Below, in pieces: positions 5,620 to 20,711 of a stretch of DNA of 20,711 bases. Location of the stretch: UHGV virus genome UHGV-0163620; one strand, 5' to 3'. The translations under genes were made by a program, and so were the position numbers. Below the pieces are notes generated by a model that worked only from the letters and a program-made list of their open reading frames with translations, did not search any database and was not told the DNA's origin. Position 1 is the first letter of the stretch. Each line of letters begins with the position of its first letter. Source of the stretch: a virus.

Positions 5620-5862
5620 TCAATGAATTAACTGCGTAAACTGCTGTGTGACCCGATACTTATGCTCTCTCCCTATGCCACGATCAACTTTCTCAAGAAG
5701 TCCAGTACGGACAGCAGAATCAAGCATCCTTTTAACAATTCTGCTATTTAACCCAACATCAAAAGAAAGCATCGAAGCGAAAACAAAACCATCACCACCA
5801 TCAGAAAAGCTCTTTTCGCTCCGTTTTCGTATCATTTCAAAAAGCAATGCCTTTTTATCCAT
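5620..5862 (-). CDS. hypothetical protein, 80 aa
   Basis: ORF with GGAGGG Shine-Dalgarno 4 nt upstream of the ATG at 5862; no family recognised. Confidence 0.5.
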   Translation of the reverse strand: MDKKALLFEMIRKRSEKSFSDGGDGFVFASMLSFDVGLNSRIVKRMLDSAVRTGLLEKVDRGIGREHKYRVTQQFTQLIH

Positions 5863-11318: not shown

Positions 11319-14300
11319 ATGACATTAAACGATTTCTATGCGGATCGCTTTGGCAGCGATCCGTTCTCGCTAATTGAAGCAGCACGGGATGAACTAACCG
11401 AGCTGGCACAGATGGCTGGTATCAACTGGCCTGCCTGTTCCGACAACATCCAACTCAACCCTCGCGGGGGGGTTGAGCGTTACTCTTCATACAATAAAAC
11501 ATCTCCAGAAGCTCTCGAAAAGAGCCTGAAAGGACGCGTAGAAATTTACTCCAGGCTGGAACACAGCAAAGGGATTGATTACCCGTTCATTAACTTCGTC
11601 CATAAAGGCAGCGATGCTGGCTCATGGAGCGGTTTCTCCTTCCTGTTTTCTGAATATCGCCGTGAGCAACAACGGAATAATGCGACCGTGGTCGCACAAC
11701 CGGAAGAAGAACGGGAAAGAATAGAACGTCAGGCCGAAGCACGTCGTCGCCGTGAAGAACAAAAACGAATTAATGACCTGAAAAACAACCAAATGGACCA
11801 TGAACGTTTGCTGGGATGGCTGGCATTCCACAGCGCGTGGGAACATGCTCCGGCTGAAGACGGCTCATGGCCATATGCGATTAAAAAAGGTATTCGTGAC
11901 GTTTTTAGTTCATGTGATGTGCGTCGCGTGACCAGTCACGACAGTGCGAAATGGAGCCGGGGGTCAACCACATATATGGCTATCCCTCTGGCTCACCTGG
12001 ACGGTCGTTATGATGGTCGTATTGTGGGTTGGCAGCGAATCGACAAACAAGGTGGGAAATACCAGACCAGCGCAGTAACCAGCGGCGATTTCGTCGGTGC
12101 CTGCTTTGTTATCGGTGAGCTGAAAGGGGCGCAAAACATCGCTGTTACAGAAGGTTTTGCTACTGGTGCATCCATCTGGCTTGCCACGAAAAAAGATAAA
12201 CGCTTTGACGCTGTGGTTGTCGCTGTATCCGCTAACAACATGGTTCATGTTGTGGAACAACTGGTAAACATGTACCCGGCGGCAAAAATCACCTGCGCAC
12301 TGGATAATGACCGGAAATCTGCCACAGAAGGAAAAGGGAATACCGGCCTGCGGACTGGCTATGAAATCTTATCGAAATTCAACGATGTCCGCTGCGTCTA
12401 CCCAACTTTTGAAGACGATCCGCAAATGGAGTGCAGTGACTTCAACGACCTGCACAAACTACGTGGACTTCGTGAAACAGCACGTCAACTATTTGCAACA
12501 GCAAACCGCCTGAAAACCGGCACTGATTTGCTATCTCTGACGCTCAACCGCCTGAAGACAATTAAGCGGGATAACCGTCGTACTTTTGCCAAAGAGCTGC
12601 TGAGAGCGGTGGATATTGGCATGCTAACCTGTCCGGTTCCTAACAGTCCGTCAGATTTATTTAACATGTTCTGCATCGTTCTGCGTGAAATGGGACTGGA
12701 AAATATCTATCGTGCTACGGTAAAAGACCACATTGCCCGTCGCCTGAATAAAAAGTGCCGTATTGCCCAGGCTCCGCGCTCTTTCAGCGAACGCATAACT
12801 GATCCCAATAAACGACCTCAACATATCACCTATAAGCGTTTTGAAACTTCGGTAATGACCGATGATGTCCTGAAGTACGTGCAATCACTACAGGGGATAG
12901 TCATCGTCCGTGCTGGTATGGGTTCCGGCAAATCTACTGGATTGTTACGACCGTTAATGCATAGCTCAGAACGTGGTATCTCTGTTGCTCACCGTGTCTC
13001 CCTTATTGGTGGCCTGTGGGAAATGATGACAGAAGGAAAAGGTGTAAAAGCCGATATCCTGCACTATCAGGATCCTGGCTATCAGGAAATGGCTCCATAC
13101 GCCAGTAAACTGACCATCTGCATAAACTCGATTGTTAAAAACTGCTGGCAACCGTTGATGCGCCAGCACGACTATTTTGGCTTTGACGAGGCCACACAAG
13201 GGCTACGTGCCGTTCTTTCCGGTCGGGCTATGGAAAACCCGGTGGCTGTATTCAATACGCTAATTGACGCGCTGGCCAGAACGGAACAACACCCAATCAT
13301 GGTGGATGCTGATGCGAACGATCTGCTGGTTGACCTGGCTGAACTGGCTATGAAACGCCGTGAAGAACTAGGTTTACCGGCATGGCTGCAGATCCACGTA
13401 ATTGAATTACCTGTTGATGTTCGCAACCGCGAAACAGGTGAGCCAATCCGGGTTTTTTATACAGAAAAAGATCGCATCATGACCGAGGTGGTGAAAGCTG
13501 TATCGGATGGCGAAAAAATTATGTTGGCCACCGACAGCTCCACCTTTGCAGAAGATGTGACCGCCACCCTGAGAATGCATTTCCCTGGCAAGAAATTTCT
13601 GTGCGTAAACCAGAAAAGCAAACAGGATGAAGAAGTCGATGCCTTTACCAGCCAGCCAAAAGTAATGGTGATGAAATACGATGGACTGATCTACAGCCCG
13701 TCGATTTCCTCCGGGGTGTCATTTGAGAAAAAACATTTTGACCGTCATTTCGGCATGTTCTGCGGTGAAGTTGTGCCCAGCGACGCAGTGCAAATGCTAC
13801 GCCGCGACCGTACAGCAAAAGAATTTATTATTGGCTTTGATAAAGCCCGTGCAAAACGCGAGACTGATCCGCAAAAAATAGAACGTGCATTCGCCCAGGC
13901 ATTACTTGCTACCGCAGGCATGAACGGTGAACTGACGGATGTCATTTTCGATGGCGACCGTATATCAATGGGGGTAGCCAATACCGACTTTACCAGGATG
14001 AAAATTAAAGCAGCCGCAATTGAAGCGTCTGCGCGTAACGACTACGCCAGCAACATGATCTGCATCATGCACAGCGACGGTTATAAGGTATCACCATTAG
14101 CTACCGATTATGCCGCGAACGATTTTGGTAAAGAGCTGCGCAAAGAAGCGCGGGATATTGTGTGGGAACAGACGCTGGATCTGCACCTCAATACAGAGAC
14201 ACCAGAAGAATCAGAGCGTGAAGAACTACTAAAAAAACGTGCGCTAACGCTTGAAGAACAGGCAAAACTGGTCCGCTGGGATATTGAGAACGAACTGAAA

Positions 14301-15302
14301 TTACCGGTTGAAGAAGGCACACTGAAATTCTATTTCGATGGCGCTCGAGACAAAATTCGCCGTTATGAAACGATGCTGCTTGATGAAGTCACAGCCCGTC
14401 GTTATGACCGTGAAGAAGCGGCTATCAATTTTACATACGCATATCGCCAGACCGGACAGTGGCAATATTTTGTGGTGACCGCGATGACACGCGAGCAGGC
14501 TGATGATGTATTCAAAGCGAAATTTCCGGGAATAATCGACTACAAGGTAAAAGCCACCCCAGCTGTTGAGGTCGGCATGCGCGGATTCTATGCGCTTAAA
14601 TCAGCAACTCTCCGGCAGTATTTTATCGACTGCGGTATCGACCCTGAAACTATGACTGGCGAAGCGACGCAGGAACGCCTTAAGTTCGCTCGAGATAATC
14701 TCATGACAGCAGAACGCCGTGACCTGTTGAATAACGTTCTGCGCATTGGTGGTTTTATGACACCAAAAGGGAAGCCTAAAGTGCCGGAAGCACTGTTTAA
14801 AAACATCTGCGACTCTCTCGGCCTAAAAACAGGAAAACGTCGCGGCAGAGATGGCGATAAGCGCCCGACATTGCGTTTTGTTGAGCCTGAGTCTGTAGCA
14901 TTTATGCTTGATATTCTTGCGCAACGTCAGGAGGACGGTATGACGTTGAAAGCTCGCAAGGCAGAAAAATCAACGACCGAAGTGGATCGCGATTTGTCAT
15001 TAAATATATATATGAATGGTGAAACGAGATCCACAAACACGGAGGAACAGGATCCCCCTCGTTCAGCTATATCACAGGCTTTGGCTGTATTGCCGGTGGC
15101 TGTTCCTGAGTCCTGGGCGATGAGTGCTCTGCCATCAGCCGAACTGGAATCTATCAGGGGGTGGTCAGTTGACAGCATCGCATACACGTTTGCAGCCCTT
15201 TATATGACTGAGTTTATGGATTTGCTGTCCGGTCATGAGATTAAGTTGCTGAAGGCTTTTATAGGCCCACGACATGCCAGCGATGAGTTTTGTGTAGTTT
15301 AG
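11319..15302 (+). CDS. repA: RepA-like multidomain replication protein (primase + helicase/origin-binding), 1327 aa
   Basis: Toprim-like segment (VTEGFATGAS ... ALDND); Walker A VRAGMGSGKST and Walker B FGFDEAT; size and architecture match N15 RepA as recalled. Confidence 0.85.
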   Translation: MTLNDFYADRFGSDPFSLIEAARDELTELAQMAGINWPACSDNIQLNPRGGVERYSSYNKTSPEALEKSLKGRVEIYSRLEHSKGIDYPFINFVHKGSDAGSWSGFSFLFSEYRREQQRNNATVVAQPEEERERIERQAEARRRREEQKRINDLKNNQMDHERLLGWLAFHSAWEHAPAEDGSWPYAIKKGIRDVFSSCDVRRVTSHDSAKWSRGSTTYMAIPLAHLDGRYDGRIVGWQRIDKQGGKYQTSAVTSGDFVGACFVIGELKGAQNIAVTEGFATGASIWLATKKDKRFDAVVVAVSANNMVHVVEQLVNMYPAAKITCALDNDRKSATEGKGNTGLRTGYEILSKFNDVRCVYPTFEDDPQMECSDFNDLHKLRGLRETARQLFATANRLKTGTDLLSLTLNRLKTIKRDNRRTFAKELLRAVDIGMLTCPVPNSPSDLFNMFCIVLREMGLENIYRATVKDHIARRLNKKCRIAQAPRSFSERITDPNKRPQHITYKRFETSVMTDDVLKYVQSLQGIVIVRAGMGSGKSTGLLRPLMHSSERGISVAHRVSLIGGLWEMMTEGKGVKADILHYQDPGYQEMAPYASKLTICINSIVKNCWQPLMRQHDYFGFDEATQGLRAVLSGRAMENPVAVFNTLIDALARTEQHPIMVDADANDLLVDLAELAMKRREELGLPAWLQIHVIELPVDVRNRETGEPIRVFYTEKDRIMTEVVKAVSDGEKIMLATDSSTFAEDVTATLRMHFPGKKFLCVNQKSKQDEEVDAFTSQPKVMVMKYDGLIYSPSISSGVSFEKKHFDRHFGMFCGEVVPSDAVQMLRRDRTAKEFIIGFDKARAKRETDPQKIERAFAQALLATAGMNGELTDVIFDGDRISMGVANTDFTRMKIKAAAIEASARNDYASNMICIMHSDGYKVSPLATDYAANDFGKELRKEARDIVWEQTLDLHLNTETPEESEREELLKKRALTLEEQAKLVRWDIENELKLPVEEGTLKFYFDGARDKIRRYETMLLDEVTARRYDREEAAINFTYAYRQTGQWQYFVVTAMTREQADDVFKAKFPGIIDYKVKATPAVEVGMRGFYALKSATLRQYFIDCGIDPETMTGEATQERLKFARDNLMTAERRDLLNNVLRIGGFMTPKGKPKVPEALFKNICDSLGLKTGKRRGRDGDKRPTLRFVEPESVAFMLDILAQRQEDGMTLKARKAEKSTTEVDRDLSLNIYMNGETRSTNTEEQDPPRSAISQALAVLPVAVPESWAMSALPSAELESIRGWSVDSIAYTFAALYMTEFMDLLSGHEIKLLKAFIGPRHASDEFCVV
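11681..11696. other. sopC-like 16-bp inverted repeat TGCGACCGTGGTCGCA, copy 4, inside repA coding sequence
   Basis: Exact 16-mer encoding residues A-T-V-V-A of RepA (codons 122-126). Confidence 0.6.
11927..11940. other. 14-bp palindrome CGTGACCAGTCACG, copy 2, inside repA coding sequence
   Basis: Exact copy of the 5872-5885 site; encodes R-V-T-S-H-D of RepA; 246 bp downstream of sopC-like copy 4. Confidence 0.55.
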
Positions 15303-16947: not shown

Positions 16948-16967
16948 CCCCGTGACTGGTCACGGGG
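16948..16967. other. 20-bp perfect palindrome CCCCGTGACTGGTCACGGGG containing copy 3 of the 14-bp dyad site (16951-16964)
   Basis: Reverse-complement orientation of the 5872 and 11927 sites; lies between the lipoprotein stop and the immA-like promoter, about 20 bp upstream of its -35. Confidence 0.55.
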
Positions 16968-16987
16968 TAAAATGTCTTTGCAAATTA

Positions 16988-17017
16988 TTGACGTGTGCGT
17001 CGTTTTGGAGGTAAAGT
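16988..17017 (+). promoter_or_regulatory. candidate promoter of the immA-like antirepressor operon
   Basis: TTGACG (16988-16993), 18-nt spacer, TAAAGT (17012-17017); judged by eye. Confidence 0.35.
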
Positions 17018-17078
17018 CACCTCGCTGCGGTAAATCCCGCAGTCGGGACTTCGCAATCCTGGCAAAACGAAGCGCACA

Positions 17079-17100
17079 ACACGCGCCAGCGTGTTTTTTT
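17079..17100 (+). terminator. intrinsic terminator/attenuator in the immA-like leader
   Basis: 6-bp stem ACACGC/GCGTGT with 4-nt loop followed by seven T (17094-17100); about 77 nt downstream of the candidate start site. Confidence 0.55.
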
Positions 17101-17131
17101 GTGTGTACAGACCTGCGCATATCCGAATTAT

Positions 17132-17211
17132 GGTGGCTCAGGTGGGGCTGACTTCGGTCGGGCCGGTTTCTTCGTTTACCGGTATTGCGAACCCCGCCTG
17201 GGCTACCACCA
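17132..17211 (+). ncRNA. tRNA-like structured RNA, candidate c4/CA-type antisense regulator (RNase P substrate-like)
   Basis: 5' GGUGGCU pairs with 3' GGCUACC (7 bp, two G-U) followed by ACCA; internal GAC-UUCG-GUC and CCGGU-N10-ACCGG stem-loops; two blocks complementary to 17221-17240 downstream. Confidence 0.4.
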
Positions 17212-17266
17212 ATAAAGAGATTCGCAACTCTGGTGGTAGCACGACCAATAAAACGGAGTGCATACC

Positions 17267-17431
17267 ATGTTCAAATTCAAATTTGCGGCAGTCGTTCGCA
17301 CAGACAAAAAGTCCCACATTCATCATCTTTCCACTATCGCGTCATCTGAACGGGAAGCTCGTCGCCAGTTCGCCAGCCGGTTTGTCCTGGTATTATCTGC
17401 CCGTATTCCGGTGCGCGAGGTGGCTGCATGA
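17267..17431 (+). CDS. small ORF, 54 aa (Icd-like position in an immI/immA-type operon), not in ORF track
   Basis: ATG at 17267 with GGAG 8 nt upstream; stop TGA overlaps the next ATG (ATGA); function unknown. Confidence 0.4.
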   Translation: MFKFKFAAVVRTDKKSHIHHLSTIASSEREARRQFASRFVLVLSARIPVREVAA

Positions 17432-17661
17432 ATCAGGTAAAAATGAACACTGTTGGCCTGCTGGAATCGTTGGATGAACGTCTGGCTCAGGTCTATGCGC
17501 TCGTATCATCAGCCCATCGGACAGTCTCCAGTTGTGAGGCGTCGATTTACCTCTCAGAGGCTGGAAAACTTCTGCAGATTGCGTGTGAGTTAACGCATGA
17601 AGCACAGGGATATTCTGCGTCTCTCTCGTCGCACTTGCTGCGCGATAAGGAGGCTGAATGA
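17428..17661 (+). CDS. hypothetical protein, 77 aa, antirepressor-operon gene
   Basis: Translationally coupled on both sides (ATGA overlaps at 17428 and 17658). Confidence 0.5.
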   Translation: MNQVKMNTVGLLESLDERLAQVYALVSSAHRTVSSCEASIYLSEAGKLLQIACELTHEAQGYSASLSSHLLRDKEAE

Positions 17662-18431
17662 GCGCGTTAGCAGTCTTTTCCTTTCAGGAAGAGCATCAGG
17701 TACGTGTAGTGATGATTAACGGCGATCCGTGGTTTGTGGCGAATGATATTTGCAATGCTTTAAGCATCCAGAATGTCACACAAGCTATCGCTAGATTAGA
17801 TGAAGATGAGCGATCTATGTTTAACATAGGCCGTCAAGGTCAAGCCAATATCATCAGCGAATCAGGTCTTTACACCCTCATTCTCCGCTGCCGTGACGCG
17901 GTGAAGCAAGGCACAACAGCTTGGCGGTTTCGCAAATGGGTAACGAACGAAGTCTTGCCCTCTATTCGCAAAAATGGAGAGTACGTTTACATCGAGCCTG
18001 AGCCAATGCGAGCAGCGGAGCCGTTGAACGGGAGGCAGAAAGCGTATCTGCGAGGGCTGATTAACGATATAGCACAAAGTTTTCGGTGCCGAAATGCCTG
18101 GATCAGTGGAATATGGTTGGCTTTGCGTCGGGCGTGTCGTAATCCATCCCCGAACCCCATAACGGTTGATGATTTGCCAGCAATTGCGGCAGAACTGCGC
18201 AGGATTTTGACGGCTGCTGAGTCGGCATTGAGGAACATGCGCACGTATGAACGGGAGTTGTTGCGTGATGTTGTTCGTGGGGGTAGGCGGAGTATGTCGT
18301 GTGGTGATTTGCCCATCATCGATATCAACTCTGATCTGGAAAAGGCGTTACCCGCACATTTTGAACTGGCAGTTCAAAAACTTGAGCAGCTATCCGCGCA
18401 GTTAAAGCCAGCAGAAATCACTAATAAATAG
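17658..18431 (+). CDS. antirepressor with Bro-N domain
   Basis: N-terminal Bro-N pattern: FSFQEEHQVRVVMINGDPWFVANDICNALSI ... GLYTLI ... FRKWVTNEVLPSIRKNG. Confidence 0.8.
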   Translation: MSALAVFSFQEEHQVRVVMINGDPWFVANDICNALSIQNVTQAIARLDEDERSMFNIGRQGQANIISESGLYTLILRCRDAVKQGTTAWRFRKWVTNEVLPSIRKNGEYVYIEPEPMRAAEPLNGRQKAYLRGLINDIAQSFRCRNAWISGIWLALRRACRNPSPNPITVDDLPAIAAELRRILTAAESALRNMRTYERELLRDVVRGGRRSMSCGDLPIIDINSDLEKALPAHFELAVQKLEQLSAQLKPAEITNK

Positions 18432-18569: not shown

Positions 18570-18593
18570 GGCACCGATTAATTCGGTGCCTTT
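18570..18593. terminator. hairpin between convergent antirepressor and telN genes (possible bidirectional terminator)
   Basis: 7-bp stem GGCACCG/CGGTGCC with 7-nt loop followed by TTT on the plus strand; U-tract weak on both strands. Confidence 0.4.
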
Positions 18594-18603
18594 AACGTAT
18601 GCT

Positions 18604-20493
18604 TTAGCCGAAATATGTCAGCCATGCTAACTGCATTGCTGACATGGGGCTGTTTGCACTGCCTGACCACGCATAATTCTGGCCATTATAATGAAACTCG
18701 ACAACGTATGAGCCATCACCAATATTTCTCACTGGCTTAAATACCGGCTTAGATACAGGCGAAGAAGGTGCAGGCGGTTGCTGTTCTTCTACGCTCTCTT
18801 CCTCTTCCTCTATCTCAATTTCGTCGTCATCCAGATCGTCATCCTCTGATAATTCATCCGCCAGTTCAGGTATTGCTTCCAGTTCTTCTTCGTCAGGCAT
18901 AACGATTTCTGGAGTATCTATTTTCAGTTGCCATTGTCCGTTTTCGCCAACAAATTGCCCCAGAGCATCAGCAGCAAATTCCAGGTATCGACTAATCATT
19001 GTAGGGCTAAATTTGAATGCTCTTAGAGTGCTGTTCGTGATTTTTATAGAGGGGTCCTGCTCTACCAGCTGCTTAACTGTGTTATGCAGACGAACTCCGG
19101 CATCACCTCTGGCGAATCCTGGCATTTCTTCATCAAGCTGCTGCAATGCTTCCAGCCTGGTATTTTCGTTTCCAGTATTTGGCCTCCATGTCTTTGAGAA
19201 GTTGGCCAGCTTGAATTGCTTATAGTGTAATTGAGTGTTTTCATCGTCATGGCCTAAAATTTCCATAAAGAAAACATCCTCATCTACGTTTTTCCAACGA
19301 GGATCTACGCGGAAAAACATTTCATACGCAATACGGGCATAAATAGCACGACTATCTTTATAAACACGGCGGTCATCTTTGAAAAATGATTTAACCCACG
19401 GGTTAAAAGCCTTTGCTAATATGGCATTAATCCGTCCGTTTTCAGAGCGTGTGTCGTTATCTCCATAACCTTTAACGACATCATCAAAATCAGATGCTGC
19501 TGGGCATGAGCGAAGTACATTTATTAAATAAACAAATGTTTTTGCTTCGCATAATGTATATATTTTTCTGGTTATATCATCAGAAGTTCTTTTTTTTGCT
19601 TGGCCTAAAAAATCAACGGTATACTTACCAGAAACAGTAAATGTACCTTGATACATAATCTCAATCATTCGTCTTCCTGACAATGCAGCAAGTGCAAATG
19701 CCAAAGGAGCCATACCTGAACGAGTGTTTAGATTATTTAATGTAGCAGGGCTATTTATAATATCGTAAATAGCTTGCATATATTTAGGGTAATCAATGAC
19801 CACCACGTTACGTTTCTTATTGTGCAGAACGTCTGCCCATCGTTGCTGGATAGATGCGCGTTCGGCAGGGCTTAGTTGAAGATGATAGAGAATCTCATGG
19901 TTAACTTTTAGCTGATTCAACTCCTCAAGTAAGGCAGATCCTTGCTGTAGTAATTTATATAAATAATCGCGCTTATCTTTCCAGTTATCGCTAGTTAAAT
20001 CAGAAATGGCGAATTGCCACTCTTTATATTTATTTGATAATTTTAATAACTTATTATGACTTTTGTTATCGCCAATTCTGATATTAGATAAATCTTCTGA
20101 TAGAGGGAGAATTAATTTTAATTTTGCCTGTAAAGCTGACATTCTCTGGCGAATATCGGCAGCAGGTAGAGAAAGCCATGACAATAGCTCCTCATTATAT
20201 AAAGGATACTTTTCAGATAGGCGATGTATATTTTTTTCAAAGCTATGATGAAGTTTATCATCAAACCGTTTTCTGGCCCTGCTCATATAGGCATTGAATG
20301 TGTTGGCTGTAATTCTTTTTTCTAATCCTTTCCCCCTAAACTTTCGCTTGTCATTAAATAATGCATTTTTAAATTTTAATGCAACAGCCTTTATTTTTTT
20401 TGTTTTCTCCCCTTGAGGACGGTCAGAGTTATCTATTGACTCAACATCGCTAACAAGTGAGTTTATTAATTCACCGATTTTTACTTTGCTCAT
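18604..20493 (-). CDS. telN: protelomerase (telomere resolvase), TelN-like
   Basis: 629 aa; N-terminus MSKVKIGELIN and long stretches match phage N15 TelN as recalled; acidic C-terminal region; AGGAGAGG Shine-Dalgarno; adjacent palindromic target site. Confidence 0.95.
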   Translation of the reverse strand: MSKVKIGELINSLVSDVESIDNSDRPQGEKTKKIKAVALKFKNALFNDKRKFRGKGLEKRITANTFNAYMSRARKRFDDKLHHSFEKNIHRLSEKYPLYNEELLSWLSLPAADIRQRMSALQAKLKLILPLSEDLSNIRIGDNKSHNKLLKLSNKYKEWQFAISDLTSDNWKDKRDYLYKLLQQGSALLEELNQLKVNHEILYHLQLSPAERASIQQRWADVLHNKKRNVVVIDYPKYMQAIYDIINSPATLNNLNTRSGMAPLAFALAALSGRRMIEIMYQGTFTVSGKYTVDFLGQAKKRTSDDITRKIYTLCEAKTFVYLINVLRSCPAASDFDDVVKGYGDNDTRSENGRINAILAKAFNPWVKSFFKDDRRVYKDSRAIYARIAYEMFFRVDPRWKNVDEDVFFMEILGHDDENTQLHYKQFKLANFSKTWRPNTGNENTRLEALQQLDEEMPGFARGDAGVRLHNTVKQLVEQDPSIKITNSTLRAFKFSPTMISRYLEFAADALGQFVGENGQWQLKIDTPEIVMPDEEELEAIPELADELSEDDDLDDDEIEIEEEEESVEEQQPPAPSSPVSKPVFKPVRNIGDGSYVVEFHYNGQNYAWSGSANSPMSAMQLAWLTYFG

Positions 20494-20657: not shown

Positions 20658-20711
20658 ATTAGCACATAATTTCCCATTATACGCGCGTATAATGGGAAAT
20701 TATGTGCTAAT
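20658..20711. other. telomere resolution site (telRL-like), perfect palindrome of at least 54 bp truncated by the window end
   Basis: All 27 base pairs around the centre (between 20684 and 20685, core TATACGCGCGTATA) verified complementary; located 165 bp upstream of telN. Confidence 0.85.

Follow-up and report, generated by a model that had tools for sequence, protein, structure and literature searches.

The window analysed here, a stretch of 20,711 nt, is an E. coli N15-like telomere phage-plasmid (a linear plasmid prophage) with repA, immA, telN and the tel palindrome in this order. TelK domains were detected in it by a domain search. Judged by sequence, positions 16988-18431 are the ortholog of the N15 immA secondary-immunity ('anti-immunity') region. 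The best explanation overall is that this locus is the ortholog of N15 cA-icd-antA-antB and works in the manner of P1 immI (c4-icd-ant), a reading to which we assign a probability of about 0.88. The initial annotation had proposed an immA-type antirepressor operon with the logic of P1 c4 and N15 CA. This interpretation is correct, given the immA orthology and the placements of the Rfam C4 and isrK models, and it is backed by the orthologous proteins and the synteny described below; every feature that it listed was found in place by a base-by-base check and with tools. Control of the c4/CA type has long been known from P1 and N15, and the present copy is an ordinary further example. The N15 immA region (cA / CA RNA-icd-antA-antB) was reportedly described by Ravin, Svarchevsky and Deho in 1999, and P1/P7 immI, with its c4 antisense RNA, icd and ant1/2, reportedly by Citron and Schuster in 1990.

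The immA locus and its genes

The N15 cA/immA region is 78.6-80.9% identical in nucleotide sequence to 16988-18431. The gene order repA-immA-telN is common to this stretch and N15, with icd-antA-antB downstream of the RNA gene. The likeness extends to the make-up of the locus, which occupies the interval from repA to telN of a telomere phage-plasmid and consists of a promoter, a leader terminator, a c4-type RNA and three coupled genes.

The first gene, icd (17267..17431, + strand), encodes a 54-aa Icd-like inhibitor of host cell division. Its product is 94% identical to N15 Icd, has the identical RefSeq name and matches NCBIfam phage_ICD_like with 67 bits (cut-off 25); no similarity to P1 Icd was found by BLASTP. 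The second gene, antA (17428..17661, +), encodes a 77-aa protein that is 63% identical to N15 AntA (gp31) and is without a Pfam or NCBIfam family match. The third, antB (17658..18431, +), encodes 257 aa with 70% identity to N15 gp30 (AntB). Stop and start codons overlap as ATGA at both junctions (icd-antA, 17428-31; antA-antB, 17658-61), and the three open reading frames are translationally coupled, as had been proposed. The last of them had been called a Bro-N antirepressor. A Bro-N domain is indeed present (Pfam E = 1.2e-20), but the gene is antB, whereas the regulator of N15 named in the literature is AntA; the function of AntB is described as not elucidated (PMC4488713; PMC10612081). A passage in PMC10732415 states that CA RNA represses the N15 antirepressor. 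By analogy, AntA is the putative antirepressor here and would be repressed by CA RNA.

The leader RNA and the c4/CA antisense RNA

A candidate promoter had been placed at the head of the locus. A consensus scan finds it (Pa) at 16988..17017 (+), with a -35 hexamer TTGACG (16988-93), an 18-nt spacer and a -10 hexamer TAAAGT (17012-17). Both hexamers align in alignment A3 with the -35 and -10 of the annotated sigma-70 promoter P1c4 (positions 48195-200 and 48218-223 of P1), and the -35 of Pa is invariant across the N15-like phages and PY54. Transcription is predicted to start at ~17024, where the Rfam isrK model also begins.

The terminator scan recovered the previously noted leader terminator as Ta, a stem at 17078-95 followed by a U run; the N15 annotation has a 'putative rho-indep. 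terminator' at the aligned position. Ta is in fact part of an IsrK / c4-a1b1-type leader RNA at 17024..17100 (+), identified by Rfam isrK, folding and the terminator scan. This leader comprises hairpin 1 (17024-43), hairpin 2 (17044-61), a single-stranded spacer and Ta. The isrK model (RF01394) matched 17024-17099 with 52.8 bits against a gathering score of 50, and the c4-a1b1 model (RF03163) stayed below its gathering score of 46.7 with 24.8 bits (E = 2.6e-4), which counts against the overall reading. Matches to isrK and C4 stand in tandem in 11 of 11 non-P1 relatives.

Downstream of Ta, an 80-nt element (17132-17211) had been singled out as a structured RNA. It folds strongly (MFE -47.6 kcal/mol; z = -5.67), a value equalled by none of 200 shuffles, and it lies within a match to the Rfam C4 antisense RNA (RF01695; 17126-17213, model positions 1-87 of 87). 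The covariance-model search scored 82.3 bits, well over the gathering score of 45, with E = 3.9e-15. The predicted mature c4/CA antisense RNA has ~79 nt and covers 17132..17210 (+). Its ends were inferred from the annotated c4 of P1 (48343-48419) and from two motifs, TTATGG (UUAU|GG in the RNA) and CCACC, which show no variation among the 13 aligned loci. The RNA consists of a closing stem of 16-17 bp, hairpin 1 (17148-61) and hairpin 2 (17162-83), and the fold with the MFE closing stem accounts for 80% of the ensemble. On alignment A1, the 51 pairs of leader and c4 together were 90.4% paired with 16 two-sided changes, which was reached by 0 of 500 shuffles. The closing stem was 100% paired, with 8 of its 17 pairs changed on both sides, and four of the five pairs of hairpin 1 covaried.

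The element had also been described as tRNA-like with an encoded ACCA. The 3' tail is indeed A-C-C, and the next A is encoded at 17211 (ACCA, 17208-11), but the 'acceptor-like 7 bp' are the outer part of the 16-17 bp closing stem; the final A, encoded here, is not conserved among relatives. ARAGORN found no tRNA or tmRNA in the stretch. A tRNA reading was rejected: no cloverleaf was recognised by ARAGORN, and the tRNA-likeness is confined to mimicry of an acceptor stem and ACCA. According to a passage in PMC11143913, which cites Hartmann (1995), c4 is an RNase P substrate. Sequence comparison supports an antisense RNA of the P1 c4 / N15 CA kind that is processed and resembles an RNase P substrate.

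Specificity contacts and proposed control

Of the two complementary pairs reported initially, the first is the a'/a2 contact of the c4 family. The segment a' (UUGCGAA, 17185..17191, +) is located in the single-stranded junction that connects hairpin 2 to the closing stem and is unpaired in the MFE structure. It is exactly complementary over 7 bp to a2 (UUCGCAA, 17221-27), which is displayed in the loop of a predicted hairpin with an AGAG/CUCU stem (17216..17231, +; stem 93% paired on A1). Of 58 loci, nearly all have a2 3-11 nt beyond the 3' end of c4, and the a2 annotated in P1 occupies the equivalent place. On A1, a' and a2 were 89.9% paired with five of seven pairs changed on both sides, giving a covariation score of 0.65 against 0.15 for shuffled controls; 22 distinct a' sequences occur over the 58 loci. 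TTCGCAA is present 8 times in the stretch against 5 expected, which is not significant alone. Chance is rejected because of the Rfam C4 score and the covariation in relatives, and not because of the rarity of the 7-mer.

The second contact is made by b' (CUUCGUUU, 17170..17177, +), the loop of c4 hairpin 2. It matches by position the b' of P1 (UCACUAAC, in the hairpin-2 loop), as deduced from the b1 and b2 annotated there. Its target b2 (AAACGGAG, 17251..17258, +) overlaps the icd Shine-Dalgarno sequence GGAG (17255-58), 8 nt upstream of the icd ATG, and the two pair over 8 bp including one G.U pair, a short duplex that counts against the overall reading. The a2 and b2 sites are separated by 23 nt here, as against 22 nt in P1. 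Over the 58 loci, most b2 sites have GGAG or GAG at their end and are found 33-43 nt after c4, and the 41 distinct b' loops covary with b1 and b2. Strict loops were used in computing b' pairing; segments that included stem bases gave a noisy RNAduplex matrix.

Upstream copies of both targets, which had been overlooked, are present in the leader. The a1 site (UUCGCAA, 17050..17056, +) is in the loop of leader hairpin 2, at a position matching the a1 site annotated in P1, and forms a perfect 8-nt complement with a' (AUUGCGAA/UUCGCAAU). The b1 site (AAACGAAG, 17065..17072, +) is in the leader spacer and is a perfect 8-nt complement of b'; a1 and b1 are 8 nt apart, against 7 nt in P1. A column-based count of a'-a1 on A1 gave 42.9% paired at register 0 and 82.2% at slide -1. 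The shortfall at register 0 arises because the a1 loop of this stretch is one column off relative to most sequences, and the count was replaced by motif-based searches with non-cognate controls. In these, a'-a1 complements of at least 7 nt were found for cognate pairs in 93% of the 58 loci and for 3% of non-cognate pairs; the corresponding rates for b'-b1 were 93% and 9%. For all probe-target combinations, complements of at least 7 nt were found in 86-97% of cognate and 3-12% of non-cognate cases. Each probe covaries with both of its targets (a' with a1 and a2, b' with b1 and b2), and this three-way pattern was seen in 13 loci and again in 58 loci.

In the mechanism that we propose, transcription would start at Pa, near 17024. 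Many transcripts would stop at Ta to give a ~77-nt leader RNA of the IsrK / c4-a1b1 type carrying a1 and b1, and read-through transcripts would contain the c4/CA RNA precursor. Judged from the homologous P1 c4, RNase P would cleave the U17131-G17132 bond and trimming would shorten the 3' end to ...ACC near 17210, leaving an RNA of ~79 nt; the processing sites and the stability of this RNA are predicted on that homology. The RNA would then expose the junction segment a' (17185-91) and the hairpin-2 loop b' (17170-77). Pairing of a' with a2 in its hairpin loop and of b' with b2 over the Shine-Dalgarno sequence would block icd translation. Given the translational coupling of icd, antA and antB, and judging from the P1 mechanism, the antirepressor genes would probably be shut off too, and the prophage would stay repressed. 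Polarity on the downstream genes is expected; in P1 it is reportedly Rho-dependent, after work by Biere, Citron and Schuster in 1992. The leader sites a1 and b1 presumably take part as well. In P1, ant expression is blocked by c4 (PMC8198154; PMC12197685).

It is possible, if unlikely, that control is instead exerted mainly at the leader, in the manner of P4 or IsrK, rather than through the icd ribosome-binding site. In a P4-type version, pairing of CA RNA with a1 and b1 (and with a2 and b2) would promote premature transcription termination. This is how P4 CI RNA acts when it pairs with seqA and seqC. In an IsrK-type version, the terminated leader RNA would work in trans as a decoy or activator relieving repression, as in Gifsy-1, where IsrK in trans boosts anrP translation >100-fold and 'orf45', which is processed to the ~80-nt STnc1160, occupies the position of c4 (PMC4825925). 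The perfect a1 and b1 sites, an isrK score above the gathering threshold and the tandem arrangement of leader and c4 in all relatives are consistent with such a role, as is the published equation of IsrK with seqA and of C4 with CI (PMC3632133). However, b2 overlaps the Shine-Dalgarno sequence in most of the 58 loci and so looks like a translational target, and the terminator scan found no intrinsic terminator between c4 and icd. Control through the leader is also compatible with a translation block.

The block 2 helix and related systems

The second complementary pair of the initial annotation is of a different nature. The sequences TTGCGAA (17185-91), GCTACCACC (17202-10), TTCGCAA (17221-27) and GGTGGTAGC (17232-40) are all exact, and the 9-nt complement between 17202-10 and 17232-40 stands, but this pair is not the homolog of P1 b'/b2. 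Block 2 (GGUGGUAGC(AC), 17232..17242, +) has two possible partners by complementarity, the 3' strand and tail of c4 (17202-10) and, alternatively, the icd initiation region (GUGC-A-UACCAU, 17258-68). On A1 the helix with the c4 3' strand was 98.3% paired, four of its nine pairs having changed on both sides; a helix of at least 8 nt was found in 78% of the 58 loci (non-cognate pairs, 42%), lying directly 3' of a2 in 50 of the 58. Both the MFE fold and RNAalifold predict the alternative helix, formed with the icd initiation region; its covariation term is ~0, and it should be regarded as a modelled structure.

The perfection of the 9-nt complement, its compensatory changes and its family-wide occurrence just 3' of a2 would all be accounted for if the mature RNA made its trans contacts through UUGCGAA and the 3' segment GCUACCACC, the latter pairing with GGUGGUAGC (17232-40). 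We consider this improbable. The GCUACC of the segment is the 3' strand of the closing stem that dominates the ensemble, and for this reason GCUACCACC is not exposed in the mature RNA. The variable determinant of the family is the hairpin-2 loop, as judged from the P1 annotation and the 41 covarying variants. The c4 3' strand has few variants, and with 42% of non-cognate pairs matching, a structural cis helix fits better than a specificity contact. We conclude that block 2 is engaged in a conserved cis helix, by which a2 is presented in a hairpin loop, and that b', not GCUACCACC/GGUGGUAGC, is the second specificity determinant of the c4 family.

A reading of 17091-17213 as protein-coding is very improbable: a 128-aa ORF (17091-17477) covers this interval and the names 'cA secondary immunity repressor'/gp32 (N15), 'ash family protein' (RefSeq) and 'orf45' (Gifsy-1) favour it, but the substitutions are compensatory in the RNA helices, the spanning ORF has no NCBIfam match, the icd frame is closed upstream of 17258, so that the 96-aa gp32 extension of N15 is not conserved, and the Gifsy-1 authors found the nucleotide sequence conserved and the amino-acid sequence not (PMC4825925). 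The basis of the 'ash family' label was not reproduced in an NCBIfam search with the 128-aa ORF across c4.

P1/P7 immI shares with the present locus the RNA fold, the UUAU|GG context of 5' processing, the CCACC 3' end, the placing of a' in the junction and of b' in the hairpin-2 loop, the aligned promoter hexamers, the order and spacing of a1, b1, c4, a2 and b2, and the position of b2 over the icd ribosome-binding site. It differs downstream, where P1 has ant1/ant2 in place of antA and antB(Bro-N), and in that the pairing of block 2 with the initiation region predicted here was not seen in P1. No equivalent of the C1 operator, a P1 feature, was identified here. The Gifsy-1 isrK-orf45 (STnc1160)-anrP region resembles the locus in its intrinsically terminated leader, ~80-nt processed RNA and antirepressor gene (PMC4825925), and the leader found here reaches the gathering score of its isrK family (RF01394). 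The first AUG of Gifsy-1 orf45, at +107, corresponds to that of AAUUAUGG at the 5' end of c4 (17130-32). Neither Gifsy-1 nor the lambdoid relative mEp460 has an icd gene ahead of the antirepressor gene, which follows directly; in Gifsy-1, activation in trans by the leader was shown (PMC4825925). Satellite phage P4 (seqA-CI RNA/seqB-seqC) is similar by description, a processed RNA from the leader transcript pairing with flanking repeated targets; IsrK is regarded as a structural homolog of P4 seqA, and C4 as a homolog of CI (PMC3632133; PMC4825925).

Relative to N15, a' is UUGCGAA here and UUGAGAA there, and b' is CUUCGUUU here and CUUCUUGU there, with the targets matched accordingly. From these differences, one mismatch in a' and three in b', the specificity of the present element is predicted to differ from that of N15, and the two RNAs may not cross-repress fully or may do so weakly or not at all.

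We also considered, tentatively and as a rather unlikely extension, that the c4/CA repressor is supplemented by a leader decoy and a block 2 toggle to form a three-part RNA switch instead of a simple antisense pair. The terminated IsrK-like leader, with its perfect decoys a1 and b1, could titrate c4/CA RNA, in which case antirepressor expression would be set by how often transcripts end at Ta relative to reading through it. The conserved GGUGGUAGC block might switch partners, pairing with the c4 3' strand in the precursor and with the icd initiation region once the mRNA has been processed; if so, c4 processing would be coupled to closure of the ribosome-binding site.

The accepted view of c4/CA-type control is unchanged by these results. 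Their value is mainly for annotation, the RNA gene being absent from the annotation of a nearly identical RefSeq record. In that record an 'ash family protein' pseudogene spans the RNA gene, and the N15 records have protein CDSs there.

For the family, the 58-locus table of matched a'/a1/a2 and b'/b1/b2 maps the nucleotides that set immunity specificity. It also shows a2 to be regularly framed by a helix with the 3' end of c4. The a' of this stretch is common to Kpn74 and its b' to NAR688. As a further part of the tentative extension above, a' and b' seem to be exchanged independently of each other in telomere phages. If this is true, it would amount to a two-part combinatorial immunity code.

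Family membership and setting of the locus

The gene order of the window is identical to that of N15: first a replication protein of 1,327 aa (11319-15302), then small genes, the immA-type locus and a convergent 629-aa protelomerase with four of four TelK Pfam domains (18604-20493). A perfect 54-bp palindrome (ATTAGCACATAATTTCCCATTATACGC / GCGTATAATGGGAAATTATGTGCTAAT) occupies the extreme end of the window (20658-20711), ~165 nt upstream of telN; a core in agreement with N15 telRL (CCATTATACGCGCGTATAATGG) identifies it as the protelomerase target or telomere. On this gene order and the telRL-like core, the window is by its sequence an N15-like telomere phage-plasmid, with the locus in the immA position. 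A 1.6-kb region is 99.9% identical to the linear 61.5-kb Escherichia coli plasmid NZ_LT906558.1 and has matches in 67 of 5,426 complete E. coli genomes; among phages, N15 matches it with 78.6% identity across 700 nt, in the segment with 'cA: secondary immunity repressor' and genes 32 and 31. Past the palindrome, the near-identical RefSeq plasmid repeats the entire arm as an inverted copy, which looks like assembly read through a hairpin end. A hairpin between the converging antB and telN (AAGGCACCGA-TTAA-TTCGGTGCCTT, 18570-18597) is likely a bidirectional terminator; owing to its short T run, it was not called by the consensus terminator scan.

The initial annotation had recognised correctly an RNA of the P1 c4 / N15 CA kind, as the Rfam C4 antisense RNA matches 17126-17213 with 82.3 bits (gathering score 45) and the ORFs that follow encode homologs of N15 Icd, AntA and AntB. 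The isrK family matches the leader at 17024-17099 (52.8 bits; gathering score 50), where the c4-a1b1 model scores below its threshold. With the exception of that threshold, the locus has each testable membership feature of the C4 family and of N15 immA. The isrK + C4 tandem is present at Rfam gathering scores in all eleven GenBank relatives, namely nine telomere phages (seven from Escherichia/Klebsiella, Yersinia PY54 and Aeromonas phiARM81ld), the N15 record and the lambdoid phage mEp460.

The 80-nt element, described at first as tRNA-like, is indeed structured, folding at -47.6 kcal/mol (z = -5.67); no tRNA gene was called by ARAGORN. Because the cleavage context UUAU/GG (cut between UUAU and GG) and a CCACC motif are invariant, the mature RNA is predicted to span 17132-17210. 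Its 3' tail, ACC, is conserved among relatives; the A completing 'ACCA' is encoded in the window and absent from most relatives. On A1, an alignment of 13 sequences, the closing stem is 100% paired, and the 51 pairs of leader and c4 taken jointly are 90.4% paired with 16 changing on both sides, a result matched by none of 500 shuffles.

The coordinates assigned initially were all correct, and scans found both the promoter-like site (TTGACG-18-TAAAGT) and the leader terminator (17078-95 and a T run). The -35 and -10 hexamers align with the annotated P1 promoter P1c4, the former being invariant among N15-like relatives. The -35 of this promoter, Pa, is preceded at a distance of 20 nt by a perfect hairpin/palindrome (CCCCGTGACTGGTCACGGGG, 16949-16968). 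In A3, an alignment covering the promoter region, it is kept in N15-like relatives, in some with 1-2 substitutions, and is not conserved in PY54, mEp460 or P1. The palindrome, which has no T run after it, could be an upstream-operon terminator or an operator.

Icd is 94% identical to N15 Icd (NCBIfam phage_ICD_like), and AntA and AntB are 63% and 70% identical to their N15 counterparts. As proposed, the ORFs are coupled through ATGA overlaps and the third contains Bro-N. In NZ_LT906558.1 an 'ash family protein' pseudogene (5647-5769, equivalent to 17091-17213 of the window) spans the RNA gene, and in N15 records L001 (2738-3028) and L002 (413-715) CDSs for 'cA secondary immunity repressor' and a 96-aa gp32 lie over the c4/CA gene. 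Such protein CDSs look like mis-annotations of the RNA gene. The ORF spanning c4 had no family in the NCBIfam scan, and the icd reading frame is closed upstream of 17258 in the window.

Probe segments and their targets

Annotations of the P1 record (a1, b1, the 77-nt c4 RNA, a2, b2 and icd) were used as a guide to the probe segments of the RNA, a' and b', and to their targets in the leader (a1, b1) and before icd (a2, b2). Read from the P1 sequence, a' is CUGUCAA, in the single-stranded junction past hairpin 2, and b' is UCACUAAC, in the hairpin 2 loop. The homologous positions in the window hold UUGCGAA (a', 17185-91) and CUUCGUUU (b', 17170-77). Leader hairpin 2 carries target a1 (UUCGCAA, 17050-56) in its loop, b1 (AAACGAAG, 17065-72) and a2 (UUCGCAA, 17221-27) are at P1-homologous positions, and b2 (AAACGGAG, 17251-58) covers the icd GGAG. 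The a1-b1 and a2-b2 gaps are 7 and 22 nt in P1, compared with 8 and 23 nt here. The four blocks noted initially are exact matches in the sequence. One 7-mer match is not significant alone; significance rests on the family model and covariation.

On A1 the a'-a2 contact is 89.9% paired, with five of seven pairs changed on both sides, and its covariation score is 0.65, where shuffles give 0.15 and slid registers no more than 0.24. For a'-a1 the column test succeeds at register -1 alone, owing to an alignment offset, and motif searches were therefore used. These showed the junction to be perfectly complementary, over 7 nt or more, to both the leader and the downstream region at 13 of 13 loci; for non-matching-probe pairs the complement averaged 3.8-4.2 nt. 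A pattern scan of IMG/VR enlarged the set to 58 loci, with 22 distinct a', 41 distinct b' loops and 47 a'/b' combinations. Complements of at least 7 nt occurred in 93% of cognate versus 3% of non-cognate pairs for a1, 97% versus 3% for a2, 93% versus 9% for b1 and 86% versus 12% for b2, the 3' end of which is usually GGAG or GAG. There is strong comparative evidence that a1, a2, b1 and b2 alone act as specificity contacts.

The window has its a', UUGCGAA, in common with Kpn74 (L006) and its b' with NAR688 (L005), and N15 (L001) and YDC107_1 (L004) have the same a' with different b'. Judged by these sequences, telomere phages combine their a' and b' specificities independently of one another. 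In some IMG/VR contigs the complete isrK + C4 module occurs two or three times in a row, ~656 nt apart (L109 9709-11209, minus strand; L063 4574-5421; L028 6535-7379). All are at Rfam gathering thresholds, and a'/b' specificity differs from module to module.

The second complementary block

The initial annotation had also paired GCUACCACC (17202-10), which makes up the 3' side of the closing stem in c4 plus the tail, with GGUGGUAGC (17232-40), directly 3' of a2. This pairing is real and conserved, but it is unlikely to be a specificity contact. The helix is 98.3% paired with four of nine pairs changed on both sides, reaches at least 8 nt in 78% of the 58 loci and adjoins a2 on its 3' side in 50 of them. 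The c4 strand is buried inside a very stable stem, and since it varies little, 42% of non-cognate pairs match as well. We interpret the pairing as a helix that forms in cis in the precursor and, with an inner AGAG/CUCU stem, would display a2 in a hairpin loop, in parallel with the hairpin loop that holds a1 in the leader.

The predicted partner of 17232-40 in the processed mRNA is GUGC-A-UACCAU (17258-68), spanning the Shine-Dalgarno end and the AUG. RNAalifold recovers this helix across 11 relatives, without covariation support. Compared with upstream-shuffled controls, most N15-like loci have a less accessible initiation region, an effect not seen in P1, phiKO2 or mEp460. We infer that block 2 may have a second role at the icd initiation region.

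Proposed control and relation to known systems

Transcripts from Pa would follow one of two courses: termination at Ta, the leader terminator, would release an IsrK-like leader that carries a1 and b1, and read-through RNA would be converted by RNase P cleavage and 3' trimming to the c4/CA RNA. Pairing of the latter with a2 and b2 would block translation of icd, to which antA and antB would be tied by their overlaps. Biere et al., in 1992, reportedly found that translational repression of P1 icd leads to Rho-dependent termination before ant.

The c4 RNA is an RNase P substrate (PMC11143913); it blocks ant expression in P1 (PMC8198154, PMC12197685), and CA RNA represses the N15 antirepressor (PMC10732415). 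With respect to P4, P1, P7 and N15, IsrK is the counterpart of seqA / c4-a1b1, and C4 that of CI (PMC3632133, PMC2864571). In Gifsy-1 the leader activates the downstream antirepressor in trans, and the region past it is processed to an ~80-nt RNA conserved in nucleotide but not amino-acid sequence (PMC4825925). The leader here is a candidate decoy, termination target or both. The first AUG of Gifsy-1 'orf45', at +107 from the transcription start (PMC4825925), corresponds to the AUG in the invariant AAUUAUGG at the c4 RNase P site (window 17130-17132), and 'orf45'/STnc1160 therefore sits at the c4 RNA position. That paper treats P4 CI RNA and does not mention c4, P1 or N15 (PMC4825925).

The locus type is already known, being textbook P1/N15 biology covered by Rfam. 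Both a' and b' differ from those of N15, with targets changed to match, and from these sequences the immunity specificity of the window is therefore predicted to differ from that of N15.
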